A stretch of DNA of 64,000 nucleotides from Bdellovibrionales bacterium (GCA_965217115.1 OZ244239.1:1361430-1425429); one strand, 5' to 3'; shown: positions 23,519 to 40,438, counted from the stretch's first letter. The notes: generated from the letters alone by a model not told the origin. A program made the numbers and translations.

Positions 23519-24247
23519 TTAAAACCTACGAATCAGCCCGACAAGAACTCCTTTGATTTGTACTTCATCAGGAGAGAACCACATAGAATCCATGTTGTCG
23601 TTGGCAGGTCTTAATTCAACACAGGGGCCGTCAAAGCCTGCACTTTCGTGTTTACTATAAGTATAGAGGTGTTTCACCGTGGCCTCGTTGTCGATCGTTG
23701 CAACAACAGTTTCTCCGTTGTTAGCGTCTTCTTGTTTTTGCACGAGAATAATATCCTCATCATAAATGCCGTCGTTAATCATGGACTCCCCCACGACTTT
23801 TAGTGCAAAGGATTTACTGGGAGATCTGATCAGGGAAGGGGGGATGTCTATGTATTCATCGTGGGATATTGCCTCGATGGGTGAGCCGGCAGCAACAAAG
23901 CCCATAAGCGGAAGAGAGAGAAGTTCATTTGTGGGTAGAGCATGGGGTGTTTGGAGGAGACTAGGCGGAGAGGAGGGAGCATTTTTAAAAGAATTGGCTC
24001 CATGTAGAATTTTAAGAGCCCGTTTTTGATTTTCCCCTGGATTGTGAATATATCCTTTGTTGTGAAGTTGCTTTAGATATCTTTGTACTGAATTGTAAGA
24101 GGCAAAACCAAAATGATCTTTGATCTCTGCATAAGAAGGGCTATAGTTTTTACGCTTTGTGTAAAGCTCTAAAAACTCTAAGAACCCTTTTTCCTTGGGA
24201 GTGAGTGAGGGCAAAGTTAGGGAGGAGCTTTGCGAAGTTATTGTCAT
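23519..24247 (-). CDS. lexA: LexA repressor (S24 self-cleaving), long form
   Basis: wHTH N-domain (SYAEIKDHFGFASYNSVQRYLKQLHNKGYI), cleavage site VAAGSP, GESM (Ser) and VKHL (Lys). The start could be the ATG at 24247 or the GTG at 24262. Confidence 0.88.
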   Translation of the reverse strand: MTITSQSSSLTLPSLTPKEKGFLEFLELYTKRKNYSPSYAEIKDHFGFASYNSVQRYLKQLHNKGYIHNPGENQKRALKILHGANSFKNAPSSPPSLLQTPHALPTNELLSLPLMGFVAAGSPIEAISHDEYIDIPPSLIRSPSKSFALKVVGESMINDGIYDEDIILVQKQEDANNGETVVATIDNEATVKHLYTYSKHESAGFDGPCVELRPANDNMDSMWFSPDEVQIKGVLVGLIRRF

Positions 24248-24266
24248 TGTCTGGGCCCTCACAGGG

Positions 24267-24281
24267 TAAGTAGTTTACTTA
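24267..24281. promoter_or_regulatory. Perfect 6-3-6 palindrome TAAGTA-GTT-TACTTA immediately upstream of lexA (candidate operator)
   Basis: Read directly from the sequence. It lies 5-20 nt upstream of the possible lexA start codons. Confidence 0.4.
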
Positions 24282-24543
24282 GCATCTTATGTGTAAATTA
24301 AGTGTAAGTCAATAGGCTGAATCAATATTTTGGGCAAAACGTGGTGGAATATTAAAATTTGAGTTTGCAGCCTTTATGGGTAAGACTGTCTCGGTGAGAG
24401 GTCTGGGAAACGACCCAATTGCTCATTTAGAGAAGTTTGATCGCCCGCAAGATATTTCAGGAACTGTTGCTATTATGACAGAGAGAGAAATTTAAAAGGC
24501 TTCGATAGATATTATTTTTTATTTTTAATAAAAGAGAGGGTTC

Positions 24544-26130
24544 ATGAGATCAGTTTTAGTGTCTTTTTTAGTCTTTAGTGTGGCCATAAATATTTGGGCG
24601 ATGGAAAAAACTTTTATTTATTGTTCAGAGGGAAGCCCCAGTTCTTTTAACCCTCAATTAGCGACCGATGGAGCAAGTTTTAATGCCAGTTCACGCACGA
24701 TTTATGACCGATTGGTGGATTTTTCTCCTGGAAGCACAAGTATCATTTCTGGTTTAGCAAAATCATGGACCGTTAGTAAAAGCTCATTGGTTTATACTTT
24801 TAAGCTACATAAAGGGGTAAAGTTCCATTCGACAAAAAACTTTAAACCCACCAGAAACTTCAATGCCGATGATGTGGTTTTTTCTTTTCGTCGTATGATG
24901 GACAAGAAAAACCCTTATCACTTAGTTAGTGGTGGCACCTATGAGTATTTTCAAAACATGGAAATGGGTAAAATCATTAAAAGGGTTAAAAAAGTAGATA
25001 ATTACACAGTGCAGTTTATCCTCTCTCGTCCAGAAGCACCGTTTTTGGCAAATTTAGCGATGGATTTTGCGAGTATTTTATCAAAAGAATACGCTGATAA
25101 AATGTTGATTGCTAAGACTCCTGAGAAGACAGATCGTTTTCCTGTGGGGACAGGGCCTTTTAAATTTAAAAAATATATAAAGGACACTTTAATTCGCTAC
25201 ACGGCCCACAAAGATTATTTTAAGGGTAAAGCTTTTATTGATCGCTTAGTTTTTAGCATCACACCAGACGCAAGTGTGCGATTCCAAAAATTAAAAGCAG
25301 GGGAATGTCATTTAGTCGGTGAGCCTTCGCCAACAGATTTAAAAAGTATGAGAGTGCGAAGTGATATTCATGTGATGGAGCAAGAAGGATTGAATGTTGG
25401 ATATGTTGCGATGAATGTAGAAAAAAAACCTTTGAATAGTTTATTAGTTCGCAAGGCGATAAATTATGCGCTCAATCGTAGGGCCTACATTAAGGCTATT
25501 TATTTGGGAAATGCAATGGTGGCTAAAAACCCTATTCCTCCGACAATCTGGGGTTATAATAATAAGATTAAAGATTATGAGTATGATATTAAAAAAGCCA
25601 AATCTCTTCTTAAAAAAGCAGGCTATTCCAATGGTTTTGAAATTGAGCTTTGGACCTTGCCCATTTCCCGCCCCTATAACCCTAATGGTAAGAAAATGGG
25701 AGAATTAATCCAAGCTGATTTGGCGAAGATAGGCATTAAGGTTAAATTGATTACCTACGATTGGCCGACTTATTTGTCGAAGGCTCGGAAGGGTGAGCAT
25801 CAGATGATTCAGCTCGGTTGGACAGGAGACAATGGAGATCCAGATAATTTCATGAACGTTCTCTTGGGTTGTGCAGCTGTTGAAGGCGGGGGAAACCTTG
25901 CCCGTTGGAAAAATAAGAATTTTTGCAAATTAATGGTACAGGCGAAATCTATTTCTAATGTAAAGGCGAGAACGAAATTCTATTTGAAGGCCCAAGAAAT
26001 TTTTAAAAAAGAAGCTCCGTGGGTACCTATTGCCCATTCAAAAGTTTTTCGGGCTATGTCAAAAAGGGTTAAAGGCTATCAAATACATCCATTTGGCGTA
26101 GAGATGTTTCATAAGGTGGACTTAAAATAA
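24544..26130 (+). CDS. ABC transporter substrate-binding protein, family 5 (peptide/opine/nickel type)
   Basis: Signal peptide, 528 aa, family-5 SBP sequence style (e.g. WTGDNGDPDNF), followed by DppB/DppC-like permeases. Confidence 0.85.
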   Translation: MRSVLVSFLVFSVAINIWAMEKTFIYCSEGSPSSFNPQLATDGASFNASSRTIYDRLVDFSPGSTSIISGLAKSWTVSKSSLVYTFKLHKGVKFHSTKNFKPTRNFNADDVVFSFRRMMDKKNPYHLVSGGTYEYFQNMEMGKIIKRVKKVDNYTVQFILSRPEAPFLANLAMDFASILSKEYADKMLIAKTPEKTDRFPVGTGPFKFKKYIKDTLIRYTAHKDYFKGKAFIDRLVFSITPDASVRFQKLKAGECHLVGEPSPTDLKSMRVRSDIHVMEQEGLNVGYVAMNVEKKPLNSLLVRKAINYALNRRAYIKAIYLGNAMVAKNPIPPTIWGYNNKIKDYEYDIKKAKSLLKKAGYSNGFEIELWTLPISRPYNPNGKKMGELIQADLAKIGIKVKLITYDWPTYLSKARKGEHQMIQLGWTGDNGDPDNFMNVLLGCAAVEGGGNLARWKNKNFCKLMVQAKSISNVKARTKFYLKAQEIFKKEAPWVPIAHSKVFRAMSKRVKGYQIHPFGVEMFHKVDLK

Positions 26131-26189
26131 AAAAGCTCCATTGAGGTAAAATTTCGATGGGTCTATAGTGAATCTTTCTGTATCGATCA

Positions 26190-27248
26190 ATGAAAACTAG
26201 ACTTTACTCTTTTTGGACGACTAGAATGGTCTTTATGTTTCAGGTGATATTCAAGCGTCTGTATGGTTCATTGCCGACTCTTTTGGGCGTCTCTTTTTTG
26301 GCTTTTGTTCTAATTCGTCTCGTTCCAGGGGACCCTGTACTTGTGTTGCTTGGAGAACGGGGAGGGTCGCCAGAGGTTGTGGCGGAGCTACAGGAAAAAT
26401 TAGGTTTAGATCAACCAGCATGGAAGCAGTATTTTATTTTTATTGGCAACGCTATTCAGGGAGACTTGGGGACATCTATTATTACCAAAAGGCCTGTGTG
26501 GGAGGAATTTATTGATCGTTTTCCAGCGACGTTAGAGTTGGGGATGTTGGGATTATTGTTTGCGATCGTACTGGGTATTCCAATGGGTATTATTGCAGCG
26601 GTGAAGCGTAATTCTTTTTGGGATTACTCTATTATGGGTGGAGCCTTGTTGGGGTATTCCATGCCTATATTTTGGTGGGGCTTGCTATTGATTCTTATTT
26701 TTTCCATTAGTTTAGGGTGGACTCCTGTCTCAGGAAGGATCAGTGCTTTTTATGATGTGGACTCAATTACGGGGTTTATGCTTATTGATACTTTAATGAG
26801 TGAGGATGGGTGGTCTGCGTTTAAGAATGCATTGAAACATCTTATTTTGCCATCCATTGTTTTAGGAACAATTCCTCTGGCAGTGATTGCTCGCATGACA
26901 CGATCTAGTTTGCTTGAAGTGATTCGAGAAGATTATATGCGCACGGCTAAGGCGAAGGGCGTGGGAGGAATGAAATTGATTTTACGCCATGGTTTGCGCA
27001 ATGCTTTGATTCCAGTGGTGACGGTGATAGGTTTGATGGTGGGGAGTGTAATTACGGGAGCTATTTTGACAGAGACGATTTTTTCATGGCCAGGGATTGG
27101 TCGTTGGCTCGTACAAAGCGTGGTGTCACGAGATTATCCTGTTATTCAAGGGGGAATACTGTGCATTGCTACGGTGGTGATTTTGGTGAATTTATTTGTC
27201 GATCTCACCTACTTGTGGATTGATCCTAAAATGAGGAAAAAGGCTTAA
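26190..27248 (+). CDS. ABC transporter permease (DppB/OppB-like)
   Basis: FVLIRLVPGDPV N-terminal motif and the EAA-loop region REDYMRTAKAKG. The true start is probably internal (ATG at 26226 or 26235). Confidence 0.88.
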   Translation: MKTRLYSFWTTRMVFMFQVIFKRLYGSLPTLLGVSFLAFVLIRLVPGDPVLVLLGERGGSPEVVAELQEKLGLDQPAWKQYFIFIGNAIQGDLGTSIITKRPVWEEFIDRFPATLELGMLGLLFAIVLGIPMGIIAAVKRNSFWDYSIMGGALLGYSMPIFWWGLLLILIFSISLGWTPVSGRISAFYDVDSITGFMLIDTLMSEDGWSAFKNALKHLILPSIVLGTIPLAVIARMTRSSLLEVIREDYMRTAKAKGVGGMKLILRHGLRNALIPVVTVIGLMVGSVITGAILTETIFSWPGIGRWLVQSVVSRDYPVIQGGILCIATVVILVNLFVDLTYLWIDPKMRKKA

Positions 27249-28097
27249 ATGGAAAAGTGGAATTTTTTTTGTCACAACAAAGGAGCTTTGGGAGGACTTG
27301 TTATTGTTCTTTTATTTGTTCTGCTGGCGATATTGGCTCCTTTAATAGCTCCCTACTCTCCAATACAAATTCATGAGGGGGCTTATCGTATCGAGCCTTT
27401 TTGGACCTTGGAAGGAAGCTTCCTTTATATTCTTGGTACAGATGACATTGGAAGAGATCTTTTGAGTCGTTTGATTTATGGAGCACGAATTTCTCTGGGG
27501 ATTGGGTTTTTAATTGTAACCTTCTCTCTTTTTATAGGCACGACATTAGGTTTATTGGCAGGTTATTATGAGGGAAAAATAGAGAGTGTTATTATGCGCT
27601 CGGTGGATATTCTAATGTCTTTACCCAGTATTTTACTGGCAATTGTTGTTGTAGCTATTTTAGGACCGAGTTTGATGAACACAGTTGTCGCGGTAGGCAT
27701 TGTTGGTATTCCTTCCTTTGTTCGTTTGGTGAGAGCTTCAGTTAAGGCAGAAAAGTCAAAAGAGTATGTGATTGCGGCAAGGAGTTTTGGAGCATCGTCT
27801 TGGAGGATTGCTATTTTAAATATTCTTCCGAATTGTTTTGCTCCGATTGTTGTGCAAGCGACTTTGGGTTTCAGTGATGGTATTTTAAATGCGGCAGCCT
27901 TGGGTTTTCTTGGTTTAGGGGTTCAGGCGCCTACACCAGAATGGGGGACGATGCTTTCTGACGCTCGTTCCTATATAGAGACGTCACCATGGCTTGTGAC
28001 ATTGCCAGGGCTGTGTATTTTGATTGTTGTTTTAGCATTTAATCTTTTTGGTGATGGGTTACGCGATACCTTTGACCCAAAATTAAGAGGCTCTTAG
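27249..28097 (+). CDS. ABC transporter permease (DppC/OppC-like)
   Basis: ILGTDDIGRDLLSRLIYGARISL and the EAA-loop region EYVIAARSFGAS. The ATG lies 1 nt after the preceding stop. Confidence 0.9.
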   Translation: MEKWNFFCHNKGALGGLVIVLLFVLLAILAPLIAPYSPIQIHEGAYRIEPFWTLEGSFLYILGTDDIGRDLLSRLIYGARISLGIGFLIVTFSLFIGTTLGLLAGYYEGKIESVIMRSVDILMSLPSILLAIVVVAILGPSLMNTVVAVGIVGIPSFVRLVRASVKAEKSKEYVIAARSFGASSWRIAILNILPNCFAPIVVQATLGFSDGILNAAALGFLGLGVQAPTPEWGTMLSDARSYIETSPWLVTLPGLCILIVVLAFNLFGDGLRDTFDPKLRGS

Positions 28098-28123
28098 GGG
28101 CTAGTTATTTTTTTGGAGAATTT

Positions 28124-29500
28124 ATGGCGCAACTAATAACGAAAAACCCCTATAGTCTGGTAGAAATTAATTCCTATGAGATGGATGATTTTGAAAATTC
28201 TAAATTAAAAGTTCAAAGATTAGAAACGGCCCAAAAAACATGGGGCCATGTTGACCTTTCCAAGAGAATTAATCTTGTTAAAAAAGGAATGGAGTATTTT
28301 GAAAATCATCGAGTTGAGATAGCCAAAGATATTAGCGAACAAATAGGTCGACCTTTGCATTATTGCGATGGAGAAGTGAAGGGTTTTTTTGAAAGAGCCG
28401 ATCACCTTTGTGCCATTGCTAGAAGGAGCTTAGCTGTTGAGGTCATTGAGCCCAAGGAGGGGTTTGAGCGAAGTATTGAAGCAACTCCTCTGGGAGTTGT
28501 CTTTGTTATTGCCGCATGGAACTACCCTCTTCTGATTGCAGTGAACTCTATTATACCAGCATTACTTGCGGGGAACACTGTGCTGTTGAAGCACTCTAAG
28601 CTAACTCCTGAAATCGGCAGACACTTTGAAAAAGCGTTTGGAAAATTAGGGGAGTTTGGAGATCTATTATTTAATGTGATTACTGATCATGAGACCACAG
28701 GAAAAATCATTGAAAACACGGGTGTTAATCATGTGGTTTTTACGGGCTCAGTGAACGGTGGTCGTCAGATTCTCTCCCATACCTCGAAGCGTTTTATGAT
28801 GCCTGGTTTAGAGTTAGGGGGGAAAGATGCAGCTTATGTTCACAGTGATGCCGATTTGGCGTTAGCTGTTGAAGCTGTTGTTGATGGGGCCCTTTTTAAT
28901 TCAGGGCAAAGTTGTTGCGGAATAGAGAGAGCTTATGTTCATGAAGATGTCTATGAGGATTTTGTGAATAAGGCTCAAAAGACTATGAGTAGCTATAAAA
29001 TGGGCGACCCAAATGATGAGAATGTCCAACTAGGGCCTTTGGCGCAACCACACGCGGCTGAAGTTATGCAAAACCAAGTCGAAGAGGCGAGGTCTAAAGG
29101 TGCTAAGGTTGTTATTGGTGGAGAAATACATAAAATAAAGAAGGCCGTCTTTTTTCCTGCAACATTAGTTGTTAATGCTGACAATAATATGGAGATCATG
29201 CGTGAAGAGAATTTTGGACCGATACTCTCGGTGATGAAGGTGAAATCTTTGCAGGAAGGCATAGAGAACATCAATGACTCCAACTATGGTTTAACTTCTG
29301 CTATTTTCACCAAGACAAAAGAGACAGCTCAAAATTTTGCTAATCAAGTCGATACAGGAACTGTGTTTATGAATCGTTGTGATTATTTGGATCCAACTTT
29401 GCCGTGGACGGGAGTTAAGGACAGTGGTTGTGGATCATCTTTGTCTCATTTTGGTTTTTTACACCTCACTCGCAGGAAATCGTTACACTTTAAAACATAG
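28124..29500 (+). CDS. NAD(P)-dependent aldehyde dehydrogenase
   Basis: LELGGKDA (catalytic Glu) and GQSCCGIER (catalytic Cys), 458 aa. Confidence 0.9.
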   Translation: MAQLITKNPYSLVEINSYEMDDFENSKLKVQRLETAQKTWGHVDLSKRINLVKKGMEYFENHRVEIAKDISEQIGRPLHYCDGEVKGFFERADHLCAIARRSLAVEVIEPKEGFERSIEATPLGVVFVIAAWNYPLLIAVNSIIPALLAGNTVLLKHSKLTPEIGRHFEKAFGKLGEFGDLLFNVITDHETTGKIIENTGVNHVVFTGSVNGGRQILSHTSKRFMMPGLELGGKDAAYVHSDADLALAVEAVVDGALFNSGQSCCGIERAYVHEDVYEDFVNKAQKTMSSYKMGDPNDENVQLGPLAQPHAAEVMQNQVEEARSKGAKVVIGGEIHKIKKAVFFPATLVVNADNNMEIMREENFGPILSVMKVKSLQEGIENINDSNYGLTSAIFTKTKETAQNFANQVDTGTVFMNRCDYLDPTLPWTGVKDSGCGSSLSHFGFLHLTRRKSLHFKT

Positions 29501-29508
29501 GAAGTATT

Positions 29509-30885
29509 ATGGAAAAAGATTTTTTAACAATTATAAAAACGTATAAAGAAAAAAATGTTAAATGCATTAAGCTGGCCATCACTGATATTGATGGTGTTAT
29601 GCGTGGGAAATACATAAATCTAGATAAATTTGAATCCGTATTAAAGGCCACAGGTGGCTTTTGCGACTGTGTTTTTGGTTGGGACGTCGTTGATAAGCTC
29701 TATGAAAATGATGTCGACTTTACAGGTTGGCATACGGCTTATCCTGATGCTCTCTTTAAAATTGATTTAAAAACACAGAGATGGCTTACCGAAGAGCAGA
29801 TTCCATTTTTTATTGCCGATTTTGTTGATAACGATGGTGAGAGTCTCCACTCTGTGTGCCCTAGAAATTTATTAAAAAGAGTTCTTAGGCAAGCTGAGGA
29901 AATGGGGATGGGCTTTAATCTGGCTTTTGAGTATGAATTTTTTCTTTTTAATGAGACTCCTCATTCTGTGCGTGAGAAGGGCTACAAGAACCTCACTCCT
30001 TTTACGCCTGGAATGTTCGGCTATAGCATGATTAGGAGTTCGACTTATTCAGACATTTTTAACGACTTGATGGATTATTTTTCAGAATTAAATATAGAGA
30101 TCGAGGGTCTCCATTGTGAAACAGGTCCAGGTGTGTTGGAGGCAGCGATAAAATACGGAGAGGCTCTTGATTCTGCCGACAAAGCCGTGTTATTTAAGAC
30201 TTTCTGTAAAGTGTTTTTTCAAAAGAGAGAGATTATGGCGACGTTTATGGCTCGTTGGAGCTTAGAATATCCAGGCCAAAGTGGGCACATACATATTTCT
30301 CCCTACGATCTCAAAACAAATAAAAACCTATTTCATGATGCCTCTGATGGAAATAACATGAGTTCTATGATGAAGTCATTTGTCGCTGGTATGTCTAAGT
30401 ATATGAAAGAATTTTTACCATTAACGACACCGACAATAAACTCTTACACACGATTGGTTAAGGGTTTTTGGGCTCCGACGGCAGCCACGTGGGGGGTAGA
30501 GAATAGAACTTGCGCCCTTAGAGTTATTCCAGGCAGTGATAAATCACAACGGGTAGAGTATCGAGTTGGTGCGGCTGACGGCAATCCTTATATTTGTGCA
30601 GCAGCAGTTATTGGAGCTGGTTTGCAGGGAGTAAAAGAAGGTCTTAAAATTTTAGAACCAATAAAAGGCAATGCTTATGATGTTCAAGACGATTTACCAC
30701 AGGAGTTGCAGTTACCAAGTTCTTTAAAAGATTCAATAAAAAACCTAGCTAAATCAACTGTGGCCCCTGAAATTTTTGGAGAAAAATTTGTGCAGCATTT
30801 TGTAAAAACTCGTGAGTGGGAAGTTTCAGAGTATGAAAAAGCAATCACTGACTGGCAACTAGAGAGATATTTTGAAATTATTTAG
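29509..30885 (+). CDS. Glutamine-synthetase-family gamma-glutamyl-amine ligase (PuuA-like)
   Basis: GS fold sequence (FEYEFFLF, HCETGPGVLE, SGHIHIS, NRTCALRV...RVEYR). Its context with an ALDH and a GATase1 hydrolase is analogous to the E. coli Puu pathway. Confidence 0.8.
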   Translation: MEKDFLTIIKTYKEKNVKCIKLAITDIDGVMRGKYINLDKFESVLKATGGFCDCVFGWDVVDKLYENDVDFTGWHTAYPDALFKIDLKTQRWLTEEQIPFFIADFVDNDGESLHSVCPRNLLKRVLRQAEEMGMGFNLAFEYEFFLFNETPHSVREKGYKNLTPFTPGMFGYSMIRSSTYSDIFNDLMDYFSELNIEIEGLHCETGPGVLEAAIKYGEALDSADKAVLFKTFCKVFFQKREIMATFMARWSLEYPGQSGHIHISPYDLKTNKNLFHDASDGNNMSSMMKSFVAGMSKYMKEFLPLTTPTINSYTRLVKGFWAPTAATWGVENRTCALRVIPGSDKSQRVEYRVGAADGNPYICAAAVIGAGLQGVKEGLKILEPIKGNAYDVQDDLPQELQLPSSLKDSIKNLAKSTVAPEIFGEKFVQHFVKTREWEVSEYEKAITDWQLERYFEII

Positions 30886-30893
30886 GAGATCTT

Positions 30894-32048
30894 ATGAAGC
30901 AATTTGATTTTCCAACGACATTGATTTATGGCGAAGGTGCTTTGGAGGAGTTGTCTCTGCGAATTGCGAAAACAAGATCAAGTTCTTTGTTGTTAGTGAC
31001 AGATAAGACGCTTGTAGAGGTTGGCATTGTATCCTTTGTCATGGATGAGTTAGTAAAGAGAGGCCTAAAGGTTACTATTTATGATGGGACTGACTCTAAC
31101 CCTACGGAAGACAATGTTTTAGAAGGGGCGGAAATTTATAAAGAGCATAAATGTGATGCCGTAGTTGCTCTTGGTGGGGGAAGCCCGATGGATGTTGCTA
31201 AGGGGGTTGTAGTTATGGCAAAAAATGACGGTCCTTTGGCGAAATATGATAATTGTTTCGGTGGTGAGAGACATATTACCAACCCACTGCCTCCTCTCTA
31301 TGCGATTCCAACAACTGCGGGAACGGGGAGTGAGGTTGGTCGCTCTGGAGTGATCATTATTAAAGAGACCAATGATAAGACGATTATTTTCCATCCAGAT
31401 CTTTTGCCAAAAATGGCTGCTCTTGATCCTGTATTGACGAAGGGTTTACCTCCACATATTACGGCAGCAACTGGCATAGATGCATTTACTCATAGTCTTG
31501 AGGCTTATTTTTCTCCTGAATTTCACCCGATGGCTGATGGAATTGCCTTGGAGGGAATGAAGATTATTTTAGATAACTTAGAAACTGCAGTGCGAGAGGG
31601 AGAAAACATTGAAGCTCGGTCAAAAATGTTAATAGCTTCATCTATGGGAGCGACGGCTTTTCAAAAAGGCCTTGGAATGACTCACTCTATAGCTCATCCA
31701 CTATCAAGCGAGTGTGGACTGCATCACGGTTTAGCCAATGCAATCATGCTTCCATTTTGTATCGCATTTTTAGAAGAATCTAATCTTAGTGAATTCCAAA
31801 GAGAAAAAATAGCCGATGTTCAAGGTCTTTTTGAAAAAAGAAATCTCTCTAAGGAGACACTTTCCCAATCTTGCAAATCTTATTTCGAGAGATTGGGGAT
31901 TAAATCCGGTCTTTCAAATTACAATGTCACTGAAGATCAAATCAAGATTCTTAGTGAAAAAGCGCTTAAGGACCCCTGTCATCAAACCAATATGATACCA
32001 GTGGACCTTGAGGATTTTAAAAAAGTTATAAGAAGGAGTTTGAGTTGA
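30894..32048 (+). CDS. Iron-containing (group III) alcohol dehydrogenase
   Basis: GGGSPMDVAK, the PTTAGTGSE glycine-rich motif, and a His-rich metal site (HSIAHPLS...HHG). Confidence 0.9.
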   Translation: MKQFDFPTTLIYGEGALEELSLRIAKTRSSSLLLVTDKTLVEVGIVSFVMDELVKRGLKVTIYDGTDSNPTEDNVLEGAEIYKEHKCDAVVALGGGSPMDVAKGVVVMAKNDGPLAKYDNCFGGERHITNPLPPLYAIPTTAGTGSEVGRSGVIIIKETNDKTIIFHPDLLPKMAALDPVLTKGLPPHITAATGIDAFTHSLEAYFSPEFHPMADGIALEGMKIILDNLETAVREGENIEARSKMLIASSMGATAFQKGLGMTHSIAHPLSSECGLHHGLANAIMLPFCIAFLEESNLSEFQREKIADVQGLFEKRNLSKETLSQSCKSYFERLGIKSGLSNYNVTEDQIKILSEKALKDPCHQTNMIPVDLEDFKKVIRRSLS

Positions 32049-32734
32049 TAGGGATTCTTGATTCTTACCATGAGGATAAAACGCCTGGAAATTATCAGGA
32101 AGAATATATTCCTGTAATTTTAAAGTTTTTTGATAAAATTTTTGAGTCAAGGGTTTACCATGTTGCTCAAAATGATTTTCCCCGTTCTGTGAATGATTGC
32201 GATGGTTGGATTATTACGGGCAGTCCTCGGAGTTGTTACGATGGAGATGAATGGCTAAAAAAATTAAGCACCTTTATTAATGAAGCACACAGAAACAAGT
32301 CTAAGCTCTTTGGCATTTGTTTTGGTCATCAAATAATAGCTCACAGTCTGGGAGGGAGAACTTTAAGGTCAGAAAAAGGCTGGGGTATTGGTGTTAGAGA
32401 GATTAAAATCATTGAACACAAGCCTTGGATGGAACCAGGCTTAGAAGATATCAAGCTTATTTTTTCACACCAAGATCAAGTTGTACAGCTTCCGTCAGAG
32501 GCGAAGCTCCTTGGGCAGAGTGAATTTTGTCCTAATGAAATGTATTCTATAGGTGAGCATATTTTTTCAATTCAAGGACACCCAGAGGTTACGAAGGATT
32601 TTGCCTTAAATAGGTTAGAGTCCCGTTTAGAGGAGATCGGTGAGTTAGCATCTTGCATTGCTAGAGAATCTTTAAACTCTCAAAGCCCCGATAATGATAT
32701 TGTGGGGGCTTGGGTTAAAAGCTTTTTTTCTTAA
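32045..32734 (+). CDS. Class I glutamine amidotransferase-like hydrolase (PuuD-like candidate)
   Basis: The nucleophile elbow GICFGHQ and the QGHPE His/Glu pair. Its TTG start overlaps the ADH stop by 4 nt. Confidence 0.75.
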   Translation: MIGILDSYHEDKTPGNYQEEYIPVILKFFDKIFESRVYHVAQNDFPRSVNDCDGWIITGSPRSCYDGDEWLKKLSTFINEAHRNKSKLFGICFGHQIIAHSLGGRTLRSEKGWGIGVREIKIIEHKPWMEPGLEDIKLIFSHQDQVVQLPSEAKLLGQSEFCPNEMYSIGEHIFSIQGHPEVTKDFALNRLESRLEEIGELASCIARESLNSQSPDNDIVGAWVKSFFS

Positions 32735-32775: not shown

Positions 32776-34077
32776 TTACATCTGTTCTTTACTGACTTCT
32801 TCGATCTTGGCGTGTTCGATCAAATAATTAACAACCTTTTCCTCGATAATTTGGTAGGTTAATCGCGATCGCTGCTCATCAGAGCCGTAGAACTCTTTGA
32901 TTTTACTGAGATCAAGTCCTGTTTGTTGAGCCATTTCAGTGTATTTTTGTTCGAAGTCACTGTCTTCACAGCTTATTTTTTTCTCTTTGGCAACGGCATC
33001 GATCATAAATCCTGAATGAACCATCTCCTTGGCCATATTATCAAAATCCTGTCCCCATTTTTGTGAGTATTCAATAAAGTCTTTTTCGTTCATACCCTGT
33101 TCGGTCATGCGTTTCTGCACGTCATTGATGAGATTTTGTTTTTGCTCTGTTTGCAGGGACTTTGGAACATCCATCGGGTTCTCTTGGACAAGCTTCTTTA
33201 AAACATTATTTTTTAAATCTTCTTTAATGCGATTTTCTTCATTTTTAAGTAAATCTCTATGAATTGTTTTCTTAAGGTCTTGGAGAGTCTGGTCCTTGCC
33301 ACCGAGTGATTTAATAAGTTCGTCGTTAAGTTCAGGAAGTTCTGATTTTTGTAGCTTGTTGAGTTTGACCTTGAATTCAACAGGTTTACCAGAAATCTCT
33401 TTTGCGTGATAATCATCAGGAAATTTTGTCGATATATTTTTCTCAGAACCAACCTTCATACCAACTACTTTTTCTTCAAAACCTTCAATGAAGTTTTTTG
33501 ATCCAAGTTCCAAGGAGTGGTCTTTTCCAGAGCCCCCTTCTAAGGGAGCGCCATTGATGGAGCCGTCAAAATCAATGATAGCAATATCGCCCATTTGTGC
33601 AGGTCGATCTTCAAAGATATCTACGGCTGTGGCTTTGCTTTTTCTGATGTTTTCAAGAGTTTGATCTACTTGAGAATCGTCTAATTTTAAAATTTCTTTC
33701 TTAATAGAGAGGCCTTCAGAAGTTTTGAGAGTAACTTTAGGGCGAACCTCAAATAGGGCAGAGAAAGAAAAGGAAGAGCTTTCGTTGATATCTTTGAAGT
33801 CAAACTGAGGGTTGCCTATAGGTTCTAAGGTGTGTTCAGTTAATGCTTCCCCGTAGTTAGTTTGCACAATGTCTTGCAAGACGTCTTGTTTAACTTTGTC
33901 GCCATAAGACTGACGAATTTTGTTTAAAGGAGCTTTGCCCTTGCGAAAGCCAGAGATATCAGCGTCTTTTTGAATGACACGGTAGATTTTATTAAAAGCT
34001 GTTTTTACTGTTTCACTAGGAACTTCAATATTGAGTCTACGCTCTAGTTTTGATAATTCTTCGACATGGCTCTTCAT
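32776..34077 (-). CDS. tig: Trigger factor
   Basis: 433 aa with N-terminal ribosome-binding region GFRKGKAP and a central FKBP-type domain. Confidence 0.92.
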   Translation of the reverse strand: MKSHVEELSKLERRLNIEVPSETVKTAFNKIYRVIQKDADISGFRKGKAPLNKIRQSYGDKVKQDVLQDIVQTNYGEALTEHTLEPIGNPQFDFKDINESSSFSFSALFEVRPKVTLKTSEGLSIKKEILKLDDSQVDQTLENIRKSKATAVDIFEDRPAQMGDIAIIDFDGSINGAPLEGGSGKDHSLELGSKNFIEGFEEKVVGMKVGSEKNISTKFPDDYHAKEISGKPVEFKVKLNKLQKSELPELNDELIKSLGGKDQTLQDLKKTIHRDLLKNEENRIKEDLKNNVLKKLVQENPMDVPKSLQTEQKQNLINDVQKRMTEQGMNEKDFIEYSQKWGQDFDNMAKEMVHSGFMIDAVAKEKKISCEDSDFEQKYTEMAQQTGLDLSKIKEFYGSDEQRSRLTYQIIEEKVVNYLIEHAKIEEVSKEQM

Positions 34078-34196: not shown

Positions 34197-35027
34197 GTGA
34201 GTATGAATCAGCAAAAAATTATCTTAGTTTCAGGTAAGGGGGGAGTGGGTAAAAGCACGTTGGCCGCTTGTTTGGCTCAAAAACTGGCAAATGAAGGTCA
34301 AGAGGTGTTGCTTGTGAGGCTTTGCCGCTCATCTTCAAAAGAAAAGGCATCTCTCCGGGCCTCAACCCTATTTCCAGGGGCAGAACCATTTCAAGTGGCC
34401 TATTGGATGGGACTTGGGTGTTTACAGGATTATGTAACGCACGTAGTCAAATCTTCAAAGGTGGCTTCCTTGTTTTTTGCGAATCTGACAGTTCGCCGCT
34501 TACTAGAGGTGGCTCCCGGGCTGTGTGAGTTGTCTATTTTGGGAAAACTAACCAGTGGTATTCGCGGAGTTGGAGATTTGTTTTCTTACGATGTTGTGGT
34601 GGTGGATGGTTATGCGACGGGACACACATTATCTCTTTTGAAGGCTCCTGTTGCGATGAGAGATTTTTTTTCCACAGGGAGTCTTAAAAACCCCATGGGA
34701 GAGCAGAGTTCTGATATTTTAAAAGTATTGCAAAATAAAAACATCTTTAAAGTGGTGATTGCGACTCTTCCCGAGGAATTTTCTTTAGAGGAGTCTTGTG
34801 GTTTTGCGCAGGAATTAGAAAAATTAGAGATAGAGTGTGAGTTTTGGTTGAATCGTGTTTGGCCTGAGTGTCCAGAGAAAATAAAAGAAGGATTGTGGTG
34901 GGATCGGGTCAAAGCACAGAAGCGAGCTCTGGTTAAAAATCCTGAGAAATTTTCTATGGAGTGGCCTTTTATTCCATACGTTCAACGAGAGGAGTTATAT
35001 AGAAAATTACTAGGAGAGGTTCTATGA
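34197..35027 (+). CDS. ArsA/Get3-family P-loop ATPase, half-size subunit 1
   Basis: Deviant Walker A SGKGGVGKST and the ArsA signature-like DGYATGHTLSLLKAP. GTG start at 34197, with an in-frame ATG at 34203. Confidence 0.72.
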   Translation: MSMNQQKIILVSGKGGVGKSTLAACLAQKLANEGQEVLLVRLCRSSSKEKASLRASTLFPGAEPFQVAYWMGLGCLQDYVTHVVKSSKVASLFFANLTVRRLLEVAPGLCELSILGKLTSGIRGVGDLFSYDVVVVDGYATGHTLSLLKAPVAMRDFFSTGSLKNPMGEQSSDILKVLQNKNIFKVVIATLPEEFSLEESCGFAQELEKLEIECEFWLNRVWPECPEKIKEGLWWDRVKAQKRALVKNPEKFSMEWPFIPYVQREELYRKLLGEVL

Positions 35028-36097
35028 AAAAAGTGAGTTCACTTTTTGAGTCTAACCGCATTTTGGTTTGTGTTGGGGCAGGGGGAGTTGGTAAAACCAC
35101 AGTGGCAGCTTCTCTGGGAGTTTTATCGGCAAAGGCTGGGTTGAAAACTCTTGTTCTCACGGTGGACCCCTCTCGACGCCTAGCTAAGGCGTTTGGTCTT
35201 GGGGATTCAGAAGAGCAAAAACAAATTCACTGGGAAGATGTTTGTTTTCCACAAGGGGGAGAGTTCTGGGTGGGGGCGATTTGTCACGAGTTATTTTTTG
35301 CTCGTTTTATTCGCGAAGGGGTTAAGGATGAAGCTCTTTTGCAGAAACTAATAAAGAATAAAATATACCAAAAATTAACTGATACTTTATCTGGTTCCCA
35401 GGATTTTACATCTATGGGGAGATTGTTAGAGGCATGGGAATCTCAAGAATTTGATTTGATCGTTTTAGACACTCCTCCGAGTGAGCATGCTTTGGATTTT
35501 TTTCAAGCTCCTAAAAAATTTCAAAGGATTTTTGATAAAAAATTAATGAGTTGGTTTTCTCAAGAGAAGGACACAGATAGAAAACTCCCAAACCTTCTTA
35601 AATCTCTTGTGGGTTTTGGTCTTCAATCAGCACAGAGTGTTTTGCAAAAATTAACAGGAAGCTCTTTTATGTTAGAATTGACAGAGTTCTTTTCGGCATT
35701 GAGTCATTGGCAACAGGAATTAAGTGACAAGACGAAAAAAGTTGATGAACTTTTAAAAAGTTCAAATTTAAAATTTGTCGTTGTGACAGGTGCAGAGGAA
35801 GAGCGTTTGGAGCAAACAGAGTATTTAAAAAATCAGTTACAGCAAGAGGGCTTATCTTTAGAGGTGGTGGTGGTTAATCGTATTTTTCCATCGCCAGATT
35901 CTGTAAGTCGAGAACATTGGCCAGAATTGGAGAAACATTATTCTTATCAAAAAAATCTGTGTCAAAAATTGAGTCTCGATTTAAATGGAGTACCTGTCAT
36001 TGAGGTTTTAGAAATGAAGGAAGATATAGGAAGTCTTGACGGAGTGATGATCTTTTCAGAGTTGATATTAAAAAATGAACAGGAGATGGGTTTATGA
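35024..36097 (+). CDS. ArsA/Get3-family P-loop ATPase, half-size subunit 2 (divergent)
   Basis: GAGGVGKTT, VDPSRRLA and DTPPSEHALDFF. ATGA start/stop overlaps occur with both the upstream and the downstream genes. Confidence 0.72.
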   Translation: MKKVSSLFESNRILVCVGAGGVGKTTVAASLGVLSAKAGLKTLVLTVDPSRRLAKAFGLGDSEEQKQIHWEDVCFPQGGEFWVGAICHELFFARFIREGVKDEALLQKLIKNKIYQKLTDTLSGSQDFTSMGRLLEAWESQEFDLIVLDTPPSEHALDFFQAPKKFQRIFDKKLMSWFSQEKDTDRKLPNLLKSLVGFGLQSAQSVLQKLTGSSFMLELTEFFSALSHWQQELSDKTKKVDELLKSSNLKFVVVTGAEEERLEQTEYLKNQLQQEGLSLEVVVVNRIFPSPDSVSREHWPELEKHYSYQKNLCQKLSLDLNGVPVIEVLEMKEDIGSLDGVMIFSELILKNEQEMGL

Positions 36098-36876
36098 AAA
36101 AAAAATCTCTAAATTATTTTGAGGAATTTTTTCTTGGTTGTGCTTCCCCCGTTAAAGGCATGAGACTTCTTATGGGAGACAGGTCATTGCGTCGACTCTC
36201 ATTTTGGCCTTTTATAATCTACATTCTATTCTTTATTATTGGATTGAGTTTCTCATCACCATTACTGTTGGTGGTTTCTTCTTGGGTAACGGCCATGTTG
36301 GGAAGTACAATTGCCTCTGGATTCTTGGGGCTGTTGATTTTAATAGTTACAAAAATAATGAGTTGGTTATTTTTTGTTTTGGTATTGGGTTACGGGGTTT
36401 TTTTGGTGACTAATATTATTGCGTCGCCGTTTTATGCTCTTTTGGCTGAAAAAATATTGAAAGACAGAGGAGAAATGCCAGAGGGGGCGAAATCTCTGAA
36501 GAGTTGGTTAGGTCGAAATCTGGGCCTGATTTTACAGGCGCTGATTAAGGTGATGATTTTTCTTATCTTGGGTGCCATTTTGTTTGCTTTGTCCTTGATA
36601 CCAGCAATTGGTTTTATTGCAACTTTTGGCTTTTTTCTGATTATCGCTTTTGATTGCAGTGATTATTCCTATGAAGCTGTTTTGTGGAATTTTCGTCAGA
36701 GAATGAGTTTCTTTACTTTGCACTGGGCGGCTCATTGTGGTTTGGCGCTGACAATAGGCTTTATTTTTATGATCCCTATAATGAATATTTTTTTATTTCC
36801 GATGGCGGTTGTTGGGGCGACAGATCTATTTATTCGGTTGAGAGCTACTGACAAAGCGAGTGTAATTGAAACCTAA
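36094..36876 (+). CDS. CysZ/EI24-family polytopic membrane protein
   Basis: The motif IIASPFYALLAEKI after the second TM pair resembles the CysZ/EI24 signature. About 6 TM segments. ATGA overlap with the preceding ATPase gene. Confidence 0.55.
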   Translation: MKKKSLNYFEEFFLGCASPVKGMRLLMGDRSLRRLSFWPFIIYILFFIIGLSFSSPLLLVVSSWVTAMLGSTIASGFLGLLILIVTKIMSWLFFVLVLGYGVFLVTNIIASPFYALLAEKILKDRGEMPEGAKSLKSWLGRNLGLILQALIKVMIFLILGAILFALSLIPAIGFIATFGFFLIIAFDCSDYSYEAVLWNFRQRMSFFTLHWAAHCGLALTIGFIFMIPIMNIFLFPMAVVGATDLFIRLRATDKASVIET

Positions 36877-36891
36877 GTTAGCGAGAGAAAG

Positions 36892-38139
36892 ATGAAAGAT
36901 TTTGTACATAGGCAAATTATTAAGAACATAGATTCAGTATCTGATTGGTTTCAACAAAAATCTTTGCACCCCTATCTCCCTTTCTATTCATCGTTTGATA
37001 TGAGGGACAGTGGTTATAAGATCACTAATGTGGATGCGAATCTTTTTCCTGCTGGATTTAATAATATTTGTGAGGTTGACCGGGATGAGGCGCCAAATTT
37101 GGTCTCTCAATATTTAGAGCGTTGTTACAATCTTCCAAAGAATGCTAAAATTGTGTTATTAACCGAAGAGCACACGAGAAACGCTTATTATTGGGAAAAT
37201 ATTTATCAAATATTGAATTTATTAGAAGGGTTAGGTCACAAGGTGAAATTATGTGTGCCTAAAAAATTGGAAAAAGACATTTATGTGCAATCGGCAACAG
37301 GTAGGGAGTTGATTATTGTGTCTTGGTGGCAATTAAAGAGAGAGGGTTTTGTCCCAGATGTTGTGATAAATAATAACGATTTTTCTTCTCACTATGAGGA
37401 ATGGGAAGCATCTTTGCAGGAAGAAGTGATGTTGGTGAACCCTCCCTGGCAACTTGGTTGGCGTTGGAGAAAGAAGAGCGATTATTTTTTCCATTTTAAT
37501 TCTTTAGCTGAAACCTTTGCTCAAATAATAGATGTGGACCCGTGGGTTTTTACGGTGAGAACAGAGGTTTTTTCTAATTTCTCGATCAATGAGAGAGGGA
37601 GTCGAGATAGTTTAGCGAGTATTATACAAACACAAATAGATGAACTCTCTGAGGACTATGCACAGAGAAAGATTGATAGAAAACCGACAGTTTTTGTAAA
37701 AAACAACTCTGGAACCTACGGCATGGGAATTATAGCTGTGAGTTCAGGAGAGGAGTTTTTGCAATTAAATAATAGAGCGCGGACGAAGATGAAGGCCTCC
37801 AAGGGAGGAGAGGGGATTGGGGAGGTGATTGTGCAAGAGGGGATACCGTCCTCTTTGTTAAGTGGACAGTCAGTGGCGGAGCCAGTTCTCTATCTTGTTG
37901 GTGAAGAGTTGGCAGGGGGGTTTTTGCGAACTCATAAGGATAAGGGAGTGGTTGATAATTTGAATAGTCCGGGGGCTGTGTATAAGCGACTTTGTGTTTC
38001 TGATTTAAAAATAAATGTGGAAGGTTCTCCATTGGAAAATGTTTATGGTTGGGTTGCTAAGCTGGGTGTGCTTGCTTTGGCAATGGAGATTAAAAGTAAA
38101 AAAATAAAAATCTGTTCTTGTTCTGAATTGGAAAATTAA
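36892..38139 (+). CDS. gshA: Glutamate--cysteine ligase, rare 'T. ferrooxidans-type' family (assigned from recalled motif)
   Basis: PFYSSFDMRDSGYKITNVDANLFPAGFNN matches my memory of the N-terminal signature of this GshA family (PF08886/TIGR02049). This needs an HMM check. Confidence 0.55.
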   Translation: MKDFVHRQIIKNIDSVSDWFQQKSLHPYLPFYSSFDMRDSGYKITNVDANLFPAGFNNICEVDRDEAPNLVSQYLERCYNLPKNAKIVLLTEEHTRNAYYWENIYQILNLLEGLGHKVKLCVPKKLEKDIYVQSATGRELIIVSWWQLKREGFVPDVVINNNDFSSHYEEWEASLQEEVMLVNPPWQLGWRWRKKSDYFFHFNSLAETFAQIIDVDPWVFTVRTEVFSNFSINERGSRDSLASIIQTQIDELSEDYAQRKIDRKPTVFVKNNSGTYGMGIIAVSSGEEFLQLNNRARTKMKASKGGEGIGEVIVQEGIPSSLLSGQSVAEPVLYLVGEELAGGFLRTHKDKGVVDNLNSPGAVYKRLCVSDLKINVEGSPLENVYGWVAKLGVLALAMEIKSKKIKICSCSELEN

Positions 38140-38209: not shown

Positions 38210-38908
38210 ATGAAAAATGGGAGTATACGGTTTGTAGGTATTTTTGGATTTATATTTTTCTTTGCGATGGGGGTGAATATTGCCTTTAAATCGTGGAGTG
38301 GTTCTACCTATGTAAGTCAAAAAGTTTGGTTTGATGGAAAGCGCGATTTAGCTTCTGTTGGCAAGGCATTCGATTTTTCTAACTTAAGCGGAAATATCTT
38401 TCGTGGAGAAGCCAAATCTCAAATGATAGAGAGAGCTAGGGTGAGTGAGGGATTAGATCGAATTGGTGTGCAGTTGGGTCATTTTTTAGTAAGAACGAGT
38501 GAGGGTAAGAGAAATTTTATCTGTCGAGAGCATGGCCGCGTGGAAATGACTTTTAAAGCCAGTGGCTTTGCAATCAACGGTCGTAGGCCTGTGATGGTGG
38601 TGGATGGACTGTGCAATGTTGCCAATGATGTTAATTATATTTCGACGTTGTGGATTCCTGTGAAGGAGATCATTAAAAGTTCAGCAGGAGATGTTGAATT
38701 TAAATTTAGAGGAGAAGCTCCTGTGAGTGTGACCTTTGATGGAATGGGAGATAGTTGGCCAGAGAATTGGGCACTGTCTAGTGTGCGTTTTTATTCAGAA
38801 GGACAAAAAAAAGGAAAAGAGATGGTTGTTGAACAAAGGGATATCTTAAAGTTGCAAAAAAACAAACGCCTATCTCTTAATTGGAATCGCTGGATTCAGC
38901 AGAAATGA
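38210..38908 (+). CDS. Hypothetical membrane-anchored or exported protein
   Basis: The ATG at 38210 is preceded by AAGGGAGG. N-terminal hydrophobic segment FVGIFGFIFFFAMGVNIAF. Confidence 0.5.
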   Translation: MKNGSIRFVGIFGFIFFFAMGVNIAFKSWSGSTYVSQKVWFDGKRDLASVGKAFDFSNLSGNIFRGEAKSQMIERARVSEGLDRIGVQLGHFLVRTSEGKRNFICREHGRVEMTFKASGFAINGRRPVMVVDGLCNVANDVNYISTLWIPVKEIIKSSAGDVEFKFRGEAPVSVTFDGMGDSWPENWALSSVRFYSEGQKKGKEMVVEQRDILKLQKNKRLSLNWNRWIQQK

Positions 38909-38936
38909 CCAAGCAATGTTTAAACTTTTTACAGAG

Positions 38937-39003
38937 CGGCTTCACAGGAAGTGATCTGTCCATCTGCAATGGGAGCTGCGACATCACTAGACTCTGTGTT
39001 AAC
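38937..39003 (-). pseudogene. Truncated fragment of a paralog of the 153-aa secreted protein gene (39758..40219)
   Basis: This 67-nt stretch aligns with 39802..39868 with about six mismatches by eye. It encodes VNTESSDVAAPIADGQITSCE versus INTESNDVEALITDGQITSCE in the intact gene, and an in-frame stop lies just upstream. Confidence 0.7.
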
Positions 39004-39086
39004 TGTACGTCGTCAAAACATTTGGGAATAAACAAGATCCAGACTAATTAACAATTTCTTATTACCTTCTAGATCAAGTCAGCGAG

Positions 39087-39413
39087 CTATTTTTCTAATA
39101 TAGTACAAAAATCTTCATTATGATATACGTCAACAGCATAATAGAAAGAAATCTTATATATAGGCAATTCATAACGTGTTGGATTTTCATAAATTAAACC
39201 CTTAACAGTTATATTAAATCGATATAAGCTTTTAACATCAGAATTTTCAATGGAAAAGCGAGTAAAGAACCAGCGATCTATATTTTTATTTTCAGTCAAT
39301 AATTTGTTAACGGCGTACTTACGTACTTTGTCTTGACAATCTTTAGATGCCCCCTCTTTTGCAAAACTAACCACAGTACTAAGCAATACTAATAGTGCAA
39401 ATATTTTTTTCAT
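39087..39413 (-). CDS. Small secreted protein, unknown function (108 aa)
   Basis: Signal peptide MKKIFALLVLLSTVVSFAKEG. No motif recognised. Confidence 0.55.
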   Translation of the reverse strand: MKKIFALLVLLSTVVSFAKEGASKDCQDKVRKYAVNKLLTENKNIDRWFFTRFSIENSDVKSLYRFNITVKGLIYENPTRYELPIYKISFYYAVDVYHNEDFCTILEK

Positions 39414-39478
39414 AAAGCCCCTTTTTGTTAATTTTTCGAGAGAGTATCGCCAATTCTAAAACTTACAAGATAAAATCT

Positions 39479-39505
39479 ATAGATCGTTTAAAAAAAACGA
39501 TCTAT
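39479..39505. other. Perfect 10-bp inverted repeat (atagatcgtt-N7-aacgatctat) upstream of the 108-aa gene
   Basis: Read directly. It lies about 65-90 nt upstream of the ATG at 39413. It could be an operator or a weak terminator. Confidence 0.3.
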
Positions 39506-39678
39506 CGCCGCTGATTTTCTAGTTAATGGTATTATAAAGAAAATTTTTCGAATCCAAGACATATCTTTGTTCAAATACAATGGTTTTTTGTGACCGAAGG
39601 AAATAGTTTATGGATATACGTCATATTGAAAAAAAACATTAACAATCTAGTGATGAGTAAAAGATGCAGATAAAGCAC

Positions 39679-39706
39679 AAAAAAGAGGCTACCAATTGGC
39701 AACCTC
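39679..39706 (-). terminator. Rho-independent terminator of the 153-aa gene
   Basis: Minus strand reads gaggttgcc-aatt-ggtagcctc followed by tttttt. It lies about 50 nt after the stop at 39758. Confidence 0.65.
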
Positions 39707-39757
39707 GTCATCTTTTCCTAATTTTGATAAACTAGTTAGTTATTAAAACCTAAAATC

Positions 39758-40409: not shown

Positions 40410-40438
40410 AAAAAAAAAGGCCACTTTTTGCAGTGGCC
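40410..40438 (-). terminator. Rho-independent terminator (conserved cassette 3' flank, copy 1)
   Basis: Minus strand reads ggccact-gcaaaa-agtggcc followed by ttttttttt. Confidence 0.7.

Follow-up and report, generated by a model that had tools for sequence, protein, structure and literature searches.

We analysed a 64,000-nucleotide (nt) stretch of the genome of a Bdellovibrionales bacterium (GCA_965217115.1 OZ244239.1:1361430-1425429), hereafter the window; all positions are those of the whole stretch. Seven open reading frames (ORFs), all on the plus strand, occupy positions 24544-32734 and are separated by 59, 0, 26, 8, 8 and -4 nt (Table 1). They encode the substrate-binding protein (SBP) and two permeases of a dipeptide-type ATP-binding cassette (ABC) importer, followed by an aldehyde dehydrogenase (ALDH), a glutamine synthetase (GS)-like ligase, an iron-containing alcohol dehydrogenase (Fe-ADH) and a hydrolase of the glutamine-amidotransferase fold (GATase). 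ORF positions, gaps and Pfam assignments all agree with an initial annotation of this locus, which had listed seven co-oriented, tightly spaced genes. We consider it probable that the region consists of two functional units that have become neighbours, a dppABC importer (24544-28097) and a four-enzyme cassette (28124-32734). The cassette would catabolise a primary amino alcohol, most probably ethanolamine, to glycine via gamma-glutamyl intermediates. The source names of the closest homologs indicate that the organism belongs to the Bdellovibrionota and is Bacteriovoracaceae- or Halobacteriovoraceae-like.

Table 1. Coordinates and assignments of the features at the locus
Feature	Position	Strand	Assignment and remarks
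Intergenic region between the LexA-like gene and dppA	24263..24543	.	Presumed promoter region of dppABC and, by read-through, of the cassette
DppA-type periplasmic dipeptide-binding protein (family-5 SBP, signal peptide)	24544-26130	+	PF00496 SBP_bac_5, E 5e-102
DppB-type permease	26190-27248	+	BPD_transp_1 PF00528 and BPD_transp_1_N PF19300
DppC-type permease, last gene of the ATPase-less dppABC	27249-28097	+	PF00528 BPD_transp_1 and OppC_N
NAD(P)-dependent ALDH	28124-29500	+	PF00171 Aldedh, E 3e-116
GS-like glutamate-amine ligase (predicted)	29509-30885	+	PF00120 Gln-synt_C only, E 5e-96
Group III Fe-ADH	30894-32048	+	PF00465 Fe-ADH and PF25137 ADH_Fe_C
Class-I glutamine-amidotransferase-fold hydrolase (GATase)	32045-32734	+	PF00117; starts with TTG and overlaps the Fe-ADH gene by 4 nt

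A GS-like ligase family distinct from GlnA

The ligase scores below every curated NCBIfam cutoff, with 235 bits against a cutoff of 429 for GlnA (TIGR00653), 206 against 470 for GSIII (TIGR03105) and 189 against 650 for gamma-glutamylputrescine synthetase. It is 24% identical to Escherichia coli GlnA, 30% to PuuA and 37-38% to IpuC. The residues that bind metal (E129, E131, E212, E220, H269, E357), ATP (H271, R344) and glutamate or phosphate (R321, R339, R359) are all kept, as they are in 8 of 8 Bdellovibrionota homologs and 69 of 69 homologs from clade B of our tree. Residues of the ammonium site and flap are lost through the replacements E327W (in the catalytic flap), Y179F and N264P, which are invariant across the family. 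E327 is also missing in PuuA, IpuC, 5dm3 and 11zs, and D50 and S53 are variable among GS-like gamma-glutamyl-amine ligases. The ligase trees were built by neighbour joining, with bootstrapping on a 47-taxon subset, in which clade B as a whole is weakly supported (30%). The Bdellovibrionota ligases form a clade with 100% bootstrap support, sister (98%) to a clade from Pseudomonadales metagenome-assembled genomes (MAGs). Both lie inside a 100% family that excludes GlnA, PuuA and the 5dm3/11zs group and, less firmly, IpuC. The earlier proposal that this protein is not a true glutamine synthetase thus held up: the phylogenetic placement gave no grouping with GlnA, the scores fall under the cutoffs and the three replacements remove ammonium-site and flap residues. 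We predict a non-ammonia GS-like enzyme that ligates glutamate to an amine.

The genomic neighbours of related ligases connect the family to alcohol and aldehyde oxidation. In a proteobacterial clade whose ligases are 51-55% identical to that of the window, tblastn-based context places an ALDH and/or an Fe-ADH within 6 kb of the ligase in 59 of 67 loci. In six loci of this clade a permease reaches equivalog level for ethanolamine permease (TIGR00908; 572 bits, cutoff 382), and some of these six also carry RpiR and an N-formylglutamate amidohydrolase (FGase); 20 loci have an ACT-family amine permease. The family is widespread among Bdellovibrionota, Alphaproteobacteria and Gammaproteobacteria, is found on a Legionella plasmid too, and is everywhere annotated as ‘glutamine synthetase’. 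Judged from sequence, its members would be glutamate-amine ligases that go with Fe-ADH/ALDH cassettes and stand apart from the ethanolamine ligases characterised so far.

Variants of the ligase neighbourhood were seen outside Bdellovibrionota. A larger and uncharacterised form of the cluster is present in many alphaproteobacterial loci (L021, L025, L042, L048, L062 and others, for example at L042:5451-6965 and L071:13981-15372), where further genes encode an ACT-family permease, a DAO protein that resembles glycerol-3-phosphate oxidase and has a BFD 2Fe-2S domain, a Pyr_redox_2 protein and an AraC regulator of the GbdR-like type. The sister clade of Pseudomonadales/Gammaproteobacteria MAGs (L007-L013, L018; e.g. 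L011:4562-8451), with ligases 56-58% identical to that of the window, has the ligase and a GATase-type hydrolase only, and in 5 of these 8 loci a VC_2705-family Na+/solute symporter is encoded upstream.

Dehydrogenases and hydrolase of the cassette

The ALDH falls below every NCBIfam cutoff (190 bits against 850 for the PuuC model) and its best solved relative reaches only 218 bits. It is 44% identical to the ALDH of an ethanolamine operon from the Roseobacter group (L183) versus 29% to PuuC, and its translation shows the catalytic motifs ELGGKD and GQSCC. The best NCBIfam match of the Fe-ADH is 4-hydroxybutyrate dehydrogenase, with 357 bits against a cutoff of 500. This protein is 38% identical to the Fe-ADH of the same L183 operon and 40% to the copy in a Legionella cassette, and shows GGGSPMD and the Asp/His metal motifs.

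The hydrolase had been expected to resemble PuuD. That expectation failed, as there is no BLAST match between the two proteins, and the best solved relative is instead a plant enzyme, Arabidopsis gamma-glutamyl peptidase 1 (GGP1; 9k7i, E 3.8e-30). The motifs GICFGHQIIA and IQGHPE, which hold the Cys and the His-Glu of the catalytic triad, are identical in the alignment with GGP1. Solved structures matched at the sequence level were decisive for fold; structure prediction would not settle the substrate.

Proposed pathway and its published counterparts

In the pathway that we propose, the GS-like ligase would use ATP to join ethanolamine to the gamma-carboxyl group of glutamate, giving gamma-glutamyl-ethanolamide. 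The Fe-ADH would oxidise the free hydroxyl group of this intermediate to an aldehyde (gamma-glutamyl-acetaldehyde amide), the ALDH would convert the aldehyde to gamma-glutamyl-glycine, and the GGP1-like hydrolase would free glycine and regenerate glutamate. On ecological grounds, prey phosphatidylethanolamine would be the obvious ethanolamine source for a Bdellovibrio-like predator. The initial annotation had deduced an amino alcohol substrate and an amino acid product from the presence of an alcohol dehydrogenase in the oxidase slot, and this enzyme logic is borne out, with a ligase that is not a true GS. For the ALDH to act, the alcohol has to be a primary one, and the lack of an oxidase or aminotransferase argues against diamines.

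The alcohol-dehydrogenase logic is not new, because it is that of a published pathway of ethanolamine gamma-glutamylation. Two papers describe a route in which gamma-glutamylation of ethanolamine is followed by two oxidations, which give gamma-glutamylglycine, and by a hydrolysis that yields glycine and glutamate, and credit the route of Chromohalobacter salexigens and Agrobacterium tumefaciens to Vetting et al. 2015, Biochemistry 54:909 (PMC10132767, PMC6529630). For Phaeobacter sp. MED193 the pathway has been documented by proteomics and EtoX binding (PMC10132767). Among our loci, a Chromohalobacter operon of the 5dm3 ligase family (L182) reads RpiR-FGase-DctQ-DctM-DctP-GS-ALDH-FeADH and the Roseobacter-group operon (L183) reads RpiR-FGase-GS-ALDH-FeADH. 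A Chromohalobacter protein 94% identical to 5dm3, which we take to be Csal_0679, sits in an operon of RpiR, FGase, a transporter of the tripartite ATP-independent periplasmic (TRAP) type, GS, ALDH and FeADH, in that order.

The window shares with the C. salexigens/Phaeobacter operon the four-step logic and adjacent Fe-ADH and ALDH genes of the same families. It differs in the ligase, which is 30% identical to those of L182 and L183, whereas these two and 5dm3 form a separate clade with 100% support. It differs also in the hydrolase, a GGP1-like class-I amidotransferase fold where the operon has an FGase; the L183 FGase has no tblastn match in the window. The gene order is ALDH-GS-ADH-hydrolase in the window and hydrolase-(TRAP)-GS-ALDH-ADH in the published operon. 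No DctP-like sequence (E = 0.17, noise) or Eat-like sequence was found in the window. The cassette has no TRAP transporter (EtoVWX) or RpiR, and its neighbours are LexA and trigger factor. The cassette would thus carry out a known chemistry with a ligase from another, uncharacterised family and a hydrolase of another fold, in a predator lineage.

Other systems resemble the cassette in part. The GlnA4 cluster of Streptomyces coelicolor (SCO1611-1615) does not need eut genes, includes a gamma-glutamyl-ethanolamide synthetase and has glycine and glutamate as products, with biochemical proof for the GlnA4 step only (PMC6529630, PMC9397018). Compared by description, this cluster likewise combines a synthetase, a dehydrogenase, an ALDH and a glutamine-amidotransferase-type hydrolase; unlike in the window, the alcohol step is assigned to a short-chain dehydrogenase and there is a dedicated regulator, EpuRI. 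The four enzyme types, including a hydrolase of the same family, also occur together on the Legionella lytica plasmid pLlyPCM2298_1 (J2N86_RS14130-14145; L178:7959-12606), where the operon likewise has no dedicated transporter. Its proteins are 49% (ligase), 42% (ALDH), 40% (Fe-ADH) and 40% (GATase, annotated as ‘GMP synthase’) identical to those of the window. Unlike the window's genes, these are ordered GS-ALDH-ADH-GAT and are plasmid-borne in an amoeba-associated gammaproteobacterium, where they are likewise uncharacterised.

The label of a Puu-like pathway, given in the initial annotation, survives for the logic of the route and not for its proteins. Glutamylation, two oxidations and deglutamylation, with a GS-like ligase and an ALDH, are common to the window and the E. 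coli Puu pathway. The window has no FAD oxidase, its ALDH and ligase are only distantly related to PuuC and PuuA and score under the respective cutoffs, and PuuB and PuuD have no match to the window proteins.

If the substrate is ethanolamine, predators would recycle the dominant head group of prey membranes to glycine by a B12-independent, microcompartment-free route. Among the open-access papers searched, none links ethanolamine gamma-glutamylation to Bdellovibrio-like organisms, and nothing relevant turned up on Csal_0679 or 5DM3. As the chemistry has already been published, the main value of the locus lies in annotation and ecology.

The cassette stands apart from dpp genes in other Bdellovibrionota

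We compared the cassette with loci from a scan of genome contigs, none of which exceeds 75% identity. ALDH-GS-FeADH(-GATase) stands alone, free of transporter and regulator genes, in six other Bdellovibrionota contexts (L001, L170, L173, L175, L184 and L185), five of which include the GATase gene. The exception is L184:6606-11199, where ALDH-GS-FeADH is followed by a phosphoribosyltransferase gene in place of the GATase. Of 9 Bdellovibrionota loci, 7 have the GATase gene on the 3′ side of the gene for the Fe-ADH; L170 represents the same place as L002. No dpp genes occur in L001-L006 (L003-L006 being shorter contigs), and no dpp adjacency was found in the other Bdellovibrionota cassette loci with readable upstream sequence. 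Conversely, the cassette lies downstream of dppC in none of 80 DppC-related loci. Among the loci examined, dppC thus adjoins the ALDH gene in the window alone.

As the adjacency is not conserved, it gives no indication of a shared substrate, and close packing of genes is no proof of one when the genome is compact. The importer had been described as attached to the pathway, a claim that we could not uphold: its binding protein is of the DppA dipeptide type, the cassette stands alone elsewhere, and other dppABC operons without ATPase genes precede unrelated genes. From these comparisons, the link between dpp and the cassette is probably incidental.

Mobile-element genes flank two of the stand-alone cassettes. 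In L001:8610-14006 the cassette has inserted between murB and ddl of the dcw cell-division cluster and is closely followed by a transposase gene of the IS200 type (Y1_Tnp), and in L173 integrase (rve) fragments lie just upstream of it (L173:7178-7396). These neighbours suggest that the four-gene cassette moves as a unit.

A DppABC dipeptide importer without ATPases in its operon

The three importer proteins are 53% (DppA, over 528 aa), 56% (DppB) and 54% (DppC) identical to their E. coli counterparts, and the best solved relatives of the SBP are structures of E. coli DppA (PDB 1dpp/8z1y, ~640 bits). In DppA structures, D408 and R355 bind the alpha-ammonium and carboxylate groups of the dipeptide. 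These two residues, Y357 and W386 are all kept in the SBP within near-identical motifs, and GWTGDNGDP is identical. The EAA loops are intact in DppB (EDYMRTAKAKG...P) and DppC (KEYVIAARSFG...P). All three proteins remain below the NCBIfam equivalog cutoffs (695 bits against 1005 for DppA, 438 against 590 for DppB and 363 against 483 for DppC). Many SBP relatives at 62-69% identity carry the source labels Bdellovibrionaceae, Pseudobdellovibrionaceae, Halobacteriovorax or Bacteriovoracaceae, so the phylum has the dpp system as a native one. A literature search returned nothing relevant on dipeptide ABC systems of Bdellovibrio.

The absence of a DppD/DppF-type ATPase gene after the permeases, reported earlier, was confirmed and extends to the whole window. 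No LSGGQ-type ABC signature was found in six frames of the 64 kb, and tblastn searches of the same sequence with E. coli DppD and DppF gave noise only (E > 4). The locus thus resembles E. coli DppABCDF in its A-B-C gene order, ligand-clamping residues and EAA loops, and differs in that dppD and dppF are missing from the operon and from all 64 kb. Because the permease coupling loops are intact, DppBC presumably pair with ATPases encoded elsewhere. In all likelihood, DppA, DppB and DppC form a dipeptide importer native to Bdellovibrionota whose operon no longer includes dppDF.

The gene call of dppB needs a small correction. The DppB-like ORF has about 15 extra N-terminal codons (26190-26234), and its NCBIfam match begins at residue 16. 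Translation probably begins at an internal Met (residue 13 or 16), and the dppA-dppB spacer would then measure ~95-105 nt. The spacer holds a 10-bp hairpin (26138-26160) whose predicted fold (z-score -1.2) is no better than that of shuffled sequence.

Loss of dppDF is probably shared with related Bdellovibrionota

We assembled a comparison set of 80 metagenomic loci found with the DppC protein, together with loci found through the SBP; 65 were decidable. In 61 of these 65, dppD-dppF directly follow dppC. The four without dppDF all belong to the Bdellovibrionota DppBC clade: the window, two loci of a Bdellovibrionaceae MAG (L166 and L167) and L098. In L166 (9001-16579) and L167 (97-7465), dppA-dppB-dppC are followed after 10 nt by aroB (3-dehydroquinate synthase), aroA (5-enolpyruvylshikimate-3-phosphate synthase) and a fused aroK/aroE gene for shikimate kinase and shikimate dehydrogenase. 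A convergent gene follows dppC in L098, which the short contig L085 resembles. The genes after dppC hence differ in each ATPase-less operon. Other Bdellovibrionota have the ATPase genes: L168 retains dppABCDF and L164 has dppA apart from dppBCDF. In a neighbour-joining tree the window groups with L166/L167, which suggests that the loss of dppDF is shared with that lineage. By this comparison, the missing ATPases appear to be a lineage trait of the dpp operon and not a feature of the gamma-glutamyl pathway. That dppDF has been lost repeatedly while dppABC stayed intact and conserved suggests sharing of ATPases in the Dpp/Opp family. A LexA-like gene lies ~6 kb upstream of dpp in L166/L167, and the window also has a LexA-like gene upstream.

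Transcription across the junction

Neither a sigma-70-like consensus scan nor fold z-scores revealed a convincing promoter or terminator between dppC and the ALDH gene, as neither gave results beyond chance, and no promoter-like site lies within ~550 nt upstream of the ALDH gene. Promoter scans, terminator scans and junction folds were all no better than shuffled sequence. Given the 26-nt gap and the lack of a recognisable promoter or terminator, the cassette is probably co-transcribed with dppABC by read-through, as far as spacing can indicate. The intergenic region upstream of dppA contains only weak sigma-70-like matches, for example at 24331-24358.

Divergent from dppA is a LexA homolog (23519-24262, minus strand) of 247 aa, ~45 aa longer than the TIGR00498 model owing to an N-terminal extension. 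LexA was considered as a regulator of the operon and rejected. The motif TTACN3GTAA, presumably the Bdellovibrio-type SOS box, does not occur anywhere in the window, the 281-nt LexA-dppA intergenic region has no palindrome or inverted repeat, and nothing else ties LexA to the cluster.

Alternative readings of the substrate and of the junction

We judge ethanolamine to be the probable substrate and any other primary amino alcohol an unlikely one, with the remainder left to other outcomes. Several findings weigh against ethanolamine or against two independent units. The ligase is orthologous to no characterised ethanolamine ligase, being only 30% identical to the 5dm3/EtoX-operon family and placed outside its fully supported clade. 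Its nearest relatives outside Bdellovibrionota, from Pseudomonadales MAGs, have no ADH or ALDH within 6 kb. On the plasmid CP081101.1 of Rhodobacteraceae bacterium M382 (L177:5765-15986), a 45%-identical ligase is accompanied by a class-III aminotransferase, an FGase, an ALDH and a spermidine/putrescine-type ABC transporter. This diamine-type variant shows that the substrate switches within the ligase family, so resemblance between ligases does not reveal the substrate. Among curated models, the two dehydrogenases match C4-type enzymes best (4-hydroxybutyrate dehydrogenase for the Fe-ADH, aminobutyraldehyde dehydrogenase for the ALDH), and these would suit a C3-C4 amino alcohol as well. In none of the Bdellovibrionota loci does the cassette have an ethanolamine transporter, a phospholipase or a regulator beside it. 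Finally, the tight spacing at the dppC/ALDH junction, with no terminator or promoter, fits a functional operon fusion. The distance from the characterised ligases, the varying partners of the family and the C4-type matches, together with the 37-38% ligase identity to IpuC and its route to alaninol, would favour the same gamma-glutamylation chemistry acting on 3-aminopropanol (to beta-alanine), 4-aminobutanol (to GABA), L-alaninol (to alanine) or serinol. We regard this as a minority possibility. Ethanolamine is by far the commonest amino alcohol for a predator of Gram-negative cells; the nearest ligase clade linked to ADH and ALDH includes loci with an equivalog-level ethanolamine permease together with RpiR and FGase, which the proven operon also has; and no solved ALDH is as close to the ALDH of the window as that of the ethanolamine operon (44%).

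Two further readings bear on how the seven genes belong together. They could form one system in which DppABC, energised by ATPases encoded elsewhere, imports the substrate of the enzymes, be it a small amine, a peptide-like compound or a gamma-glutamyl one. The shared strand, the gaps of 0-59 nt (26 nt between dppC and ALDH), the lack of a promoter-like site or significant terminator and the lack of any other transporter with the cassette would all fit. We give this reading little credence, because the SBP retains the DppA clamp for the alpha-amino and carboxylate groups of dipeptides, no other readable Bdellovibrionota cassette lies beside dpp and the cassette follows dppC in 0 of 80 related loci, and ATPase-less dppABC elsewhere precedes shikimate genes or a convergent gene. 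Still less probable, and largely refuted, is a true glutamine synthetase or a Puu-type polyamine cluster among unrelated neighbours. The top NCBIfam score of the ligase is for type I GlnA and the adenylylation-site Tyr aligns, but those 235 bits are far under the cutoff of 429, Glu327, Tyr179 and Asn264 are replaced by Trp, Phe and Pro, identity is low to both GlnA (24%) and PuuA (30%), a diamine route would lack its FAD oxidase or aminotransferase, and the four genes travel together in many genomes. Compared with the two-unit ethanolamine reading that we prefer, a bolder extension is speculative and on balance unlikely. It would make dppABC and the cassette one unit for prey consumption, with DppBC drawing on a trans-encoded pair of multitask ATPases that peptide importers would have in common and the cassette serving, through the uncharacterised GS-like ligase family and the GGP1-like hydrolase, as the main route of Bdellovibrio-like organisms from the prey-phosphatidylethanolamine head group to glycine. 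Shared multitask ATPases are established for CUT1 sugar importers (MsiK, MsmX); to our knowledge, shared trans-encoded ATPases are not established for the Dpp/Opp family.

Surroundings of the locus

The seven genes have housekeeping flanks. Upstream are the divergent LexA-like gene and one that encodes NupC; downstream of the cassette, a convergent trigger factor gene is followed by ArsA-like ATPases, CysZ and GshA, and ClpP-ClpX-Lon are encoded at 51-56 kb of the window. The trigger factor gene (32776-34077) does not adjoin clpP-clpX-lon, from which it is ~17 kb away. Two ClpP paralogs are present, one (16154-16759) alone beside an adenosine-deaminase-like gene and the other (55603-56214) in clpP-clpX-lon.

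At 34197-38139 (plus strand), tandem genes encode ArsA/Get3-like P-loop ATPases of 276 and 357 aa and overlap by 4 nt. After this pair come genes for a membrane protein of the CysZ/EI24 family and a glutamate-cysteine ligase of the PF08886 type. The grouping is unusual, and it might link sulfur or glutathione metabolism to the ATPase pair. Farther downstream, the stretch 38900-50000 has a G+C content of 0.33-0.37 against ~0.40 and contains short ORFs, mostly without a Pfam match, among them genes for a DUF4423 protein and an alpha/beta hydrolase. It ends near a tRNA-Val gene (49600-49675) and may be a lineage-specific or acquired island.

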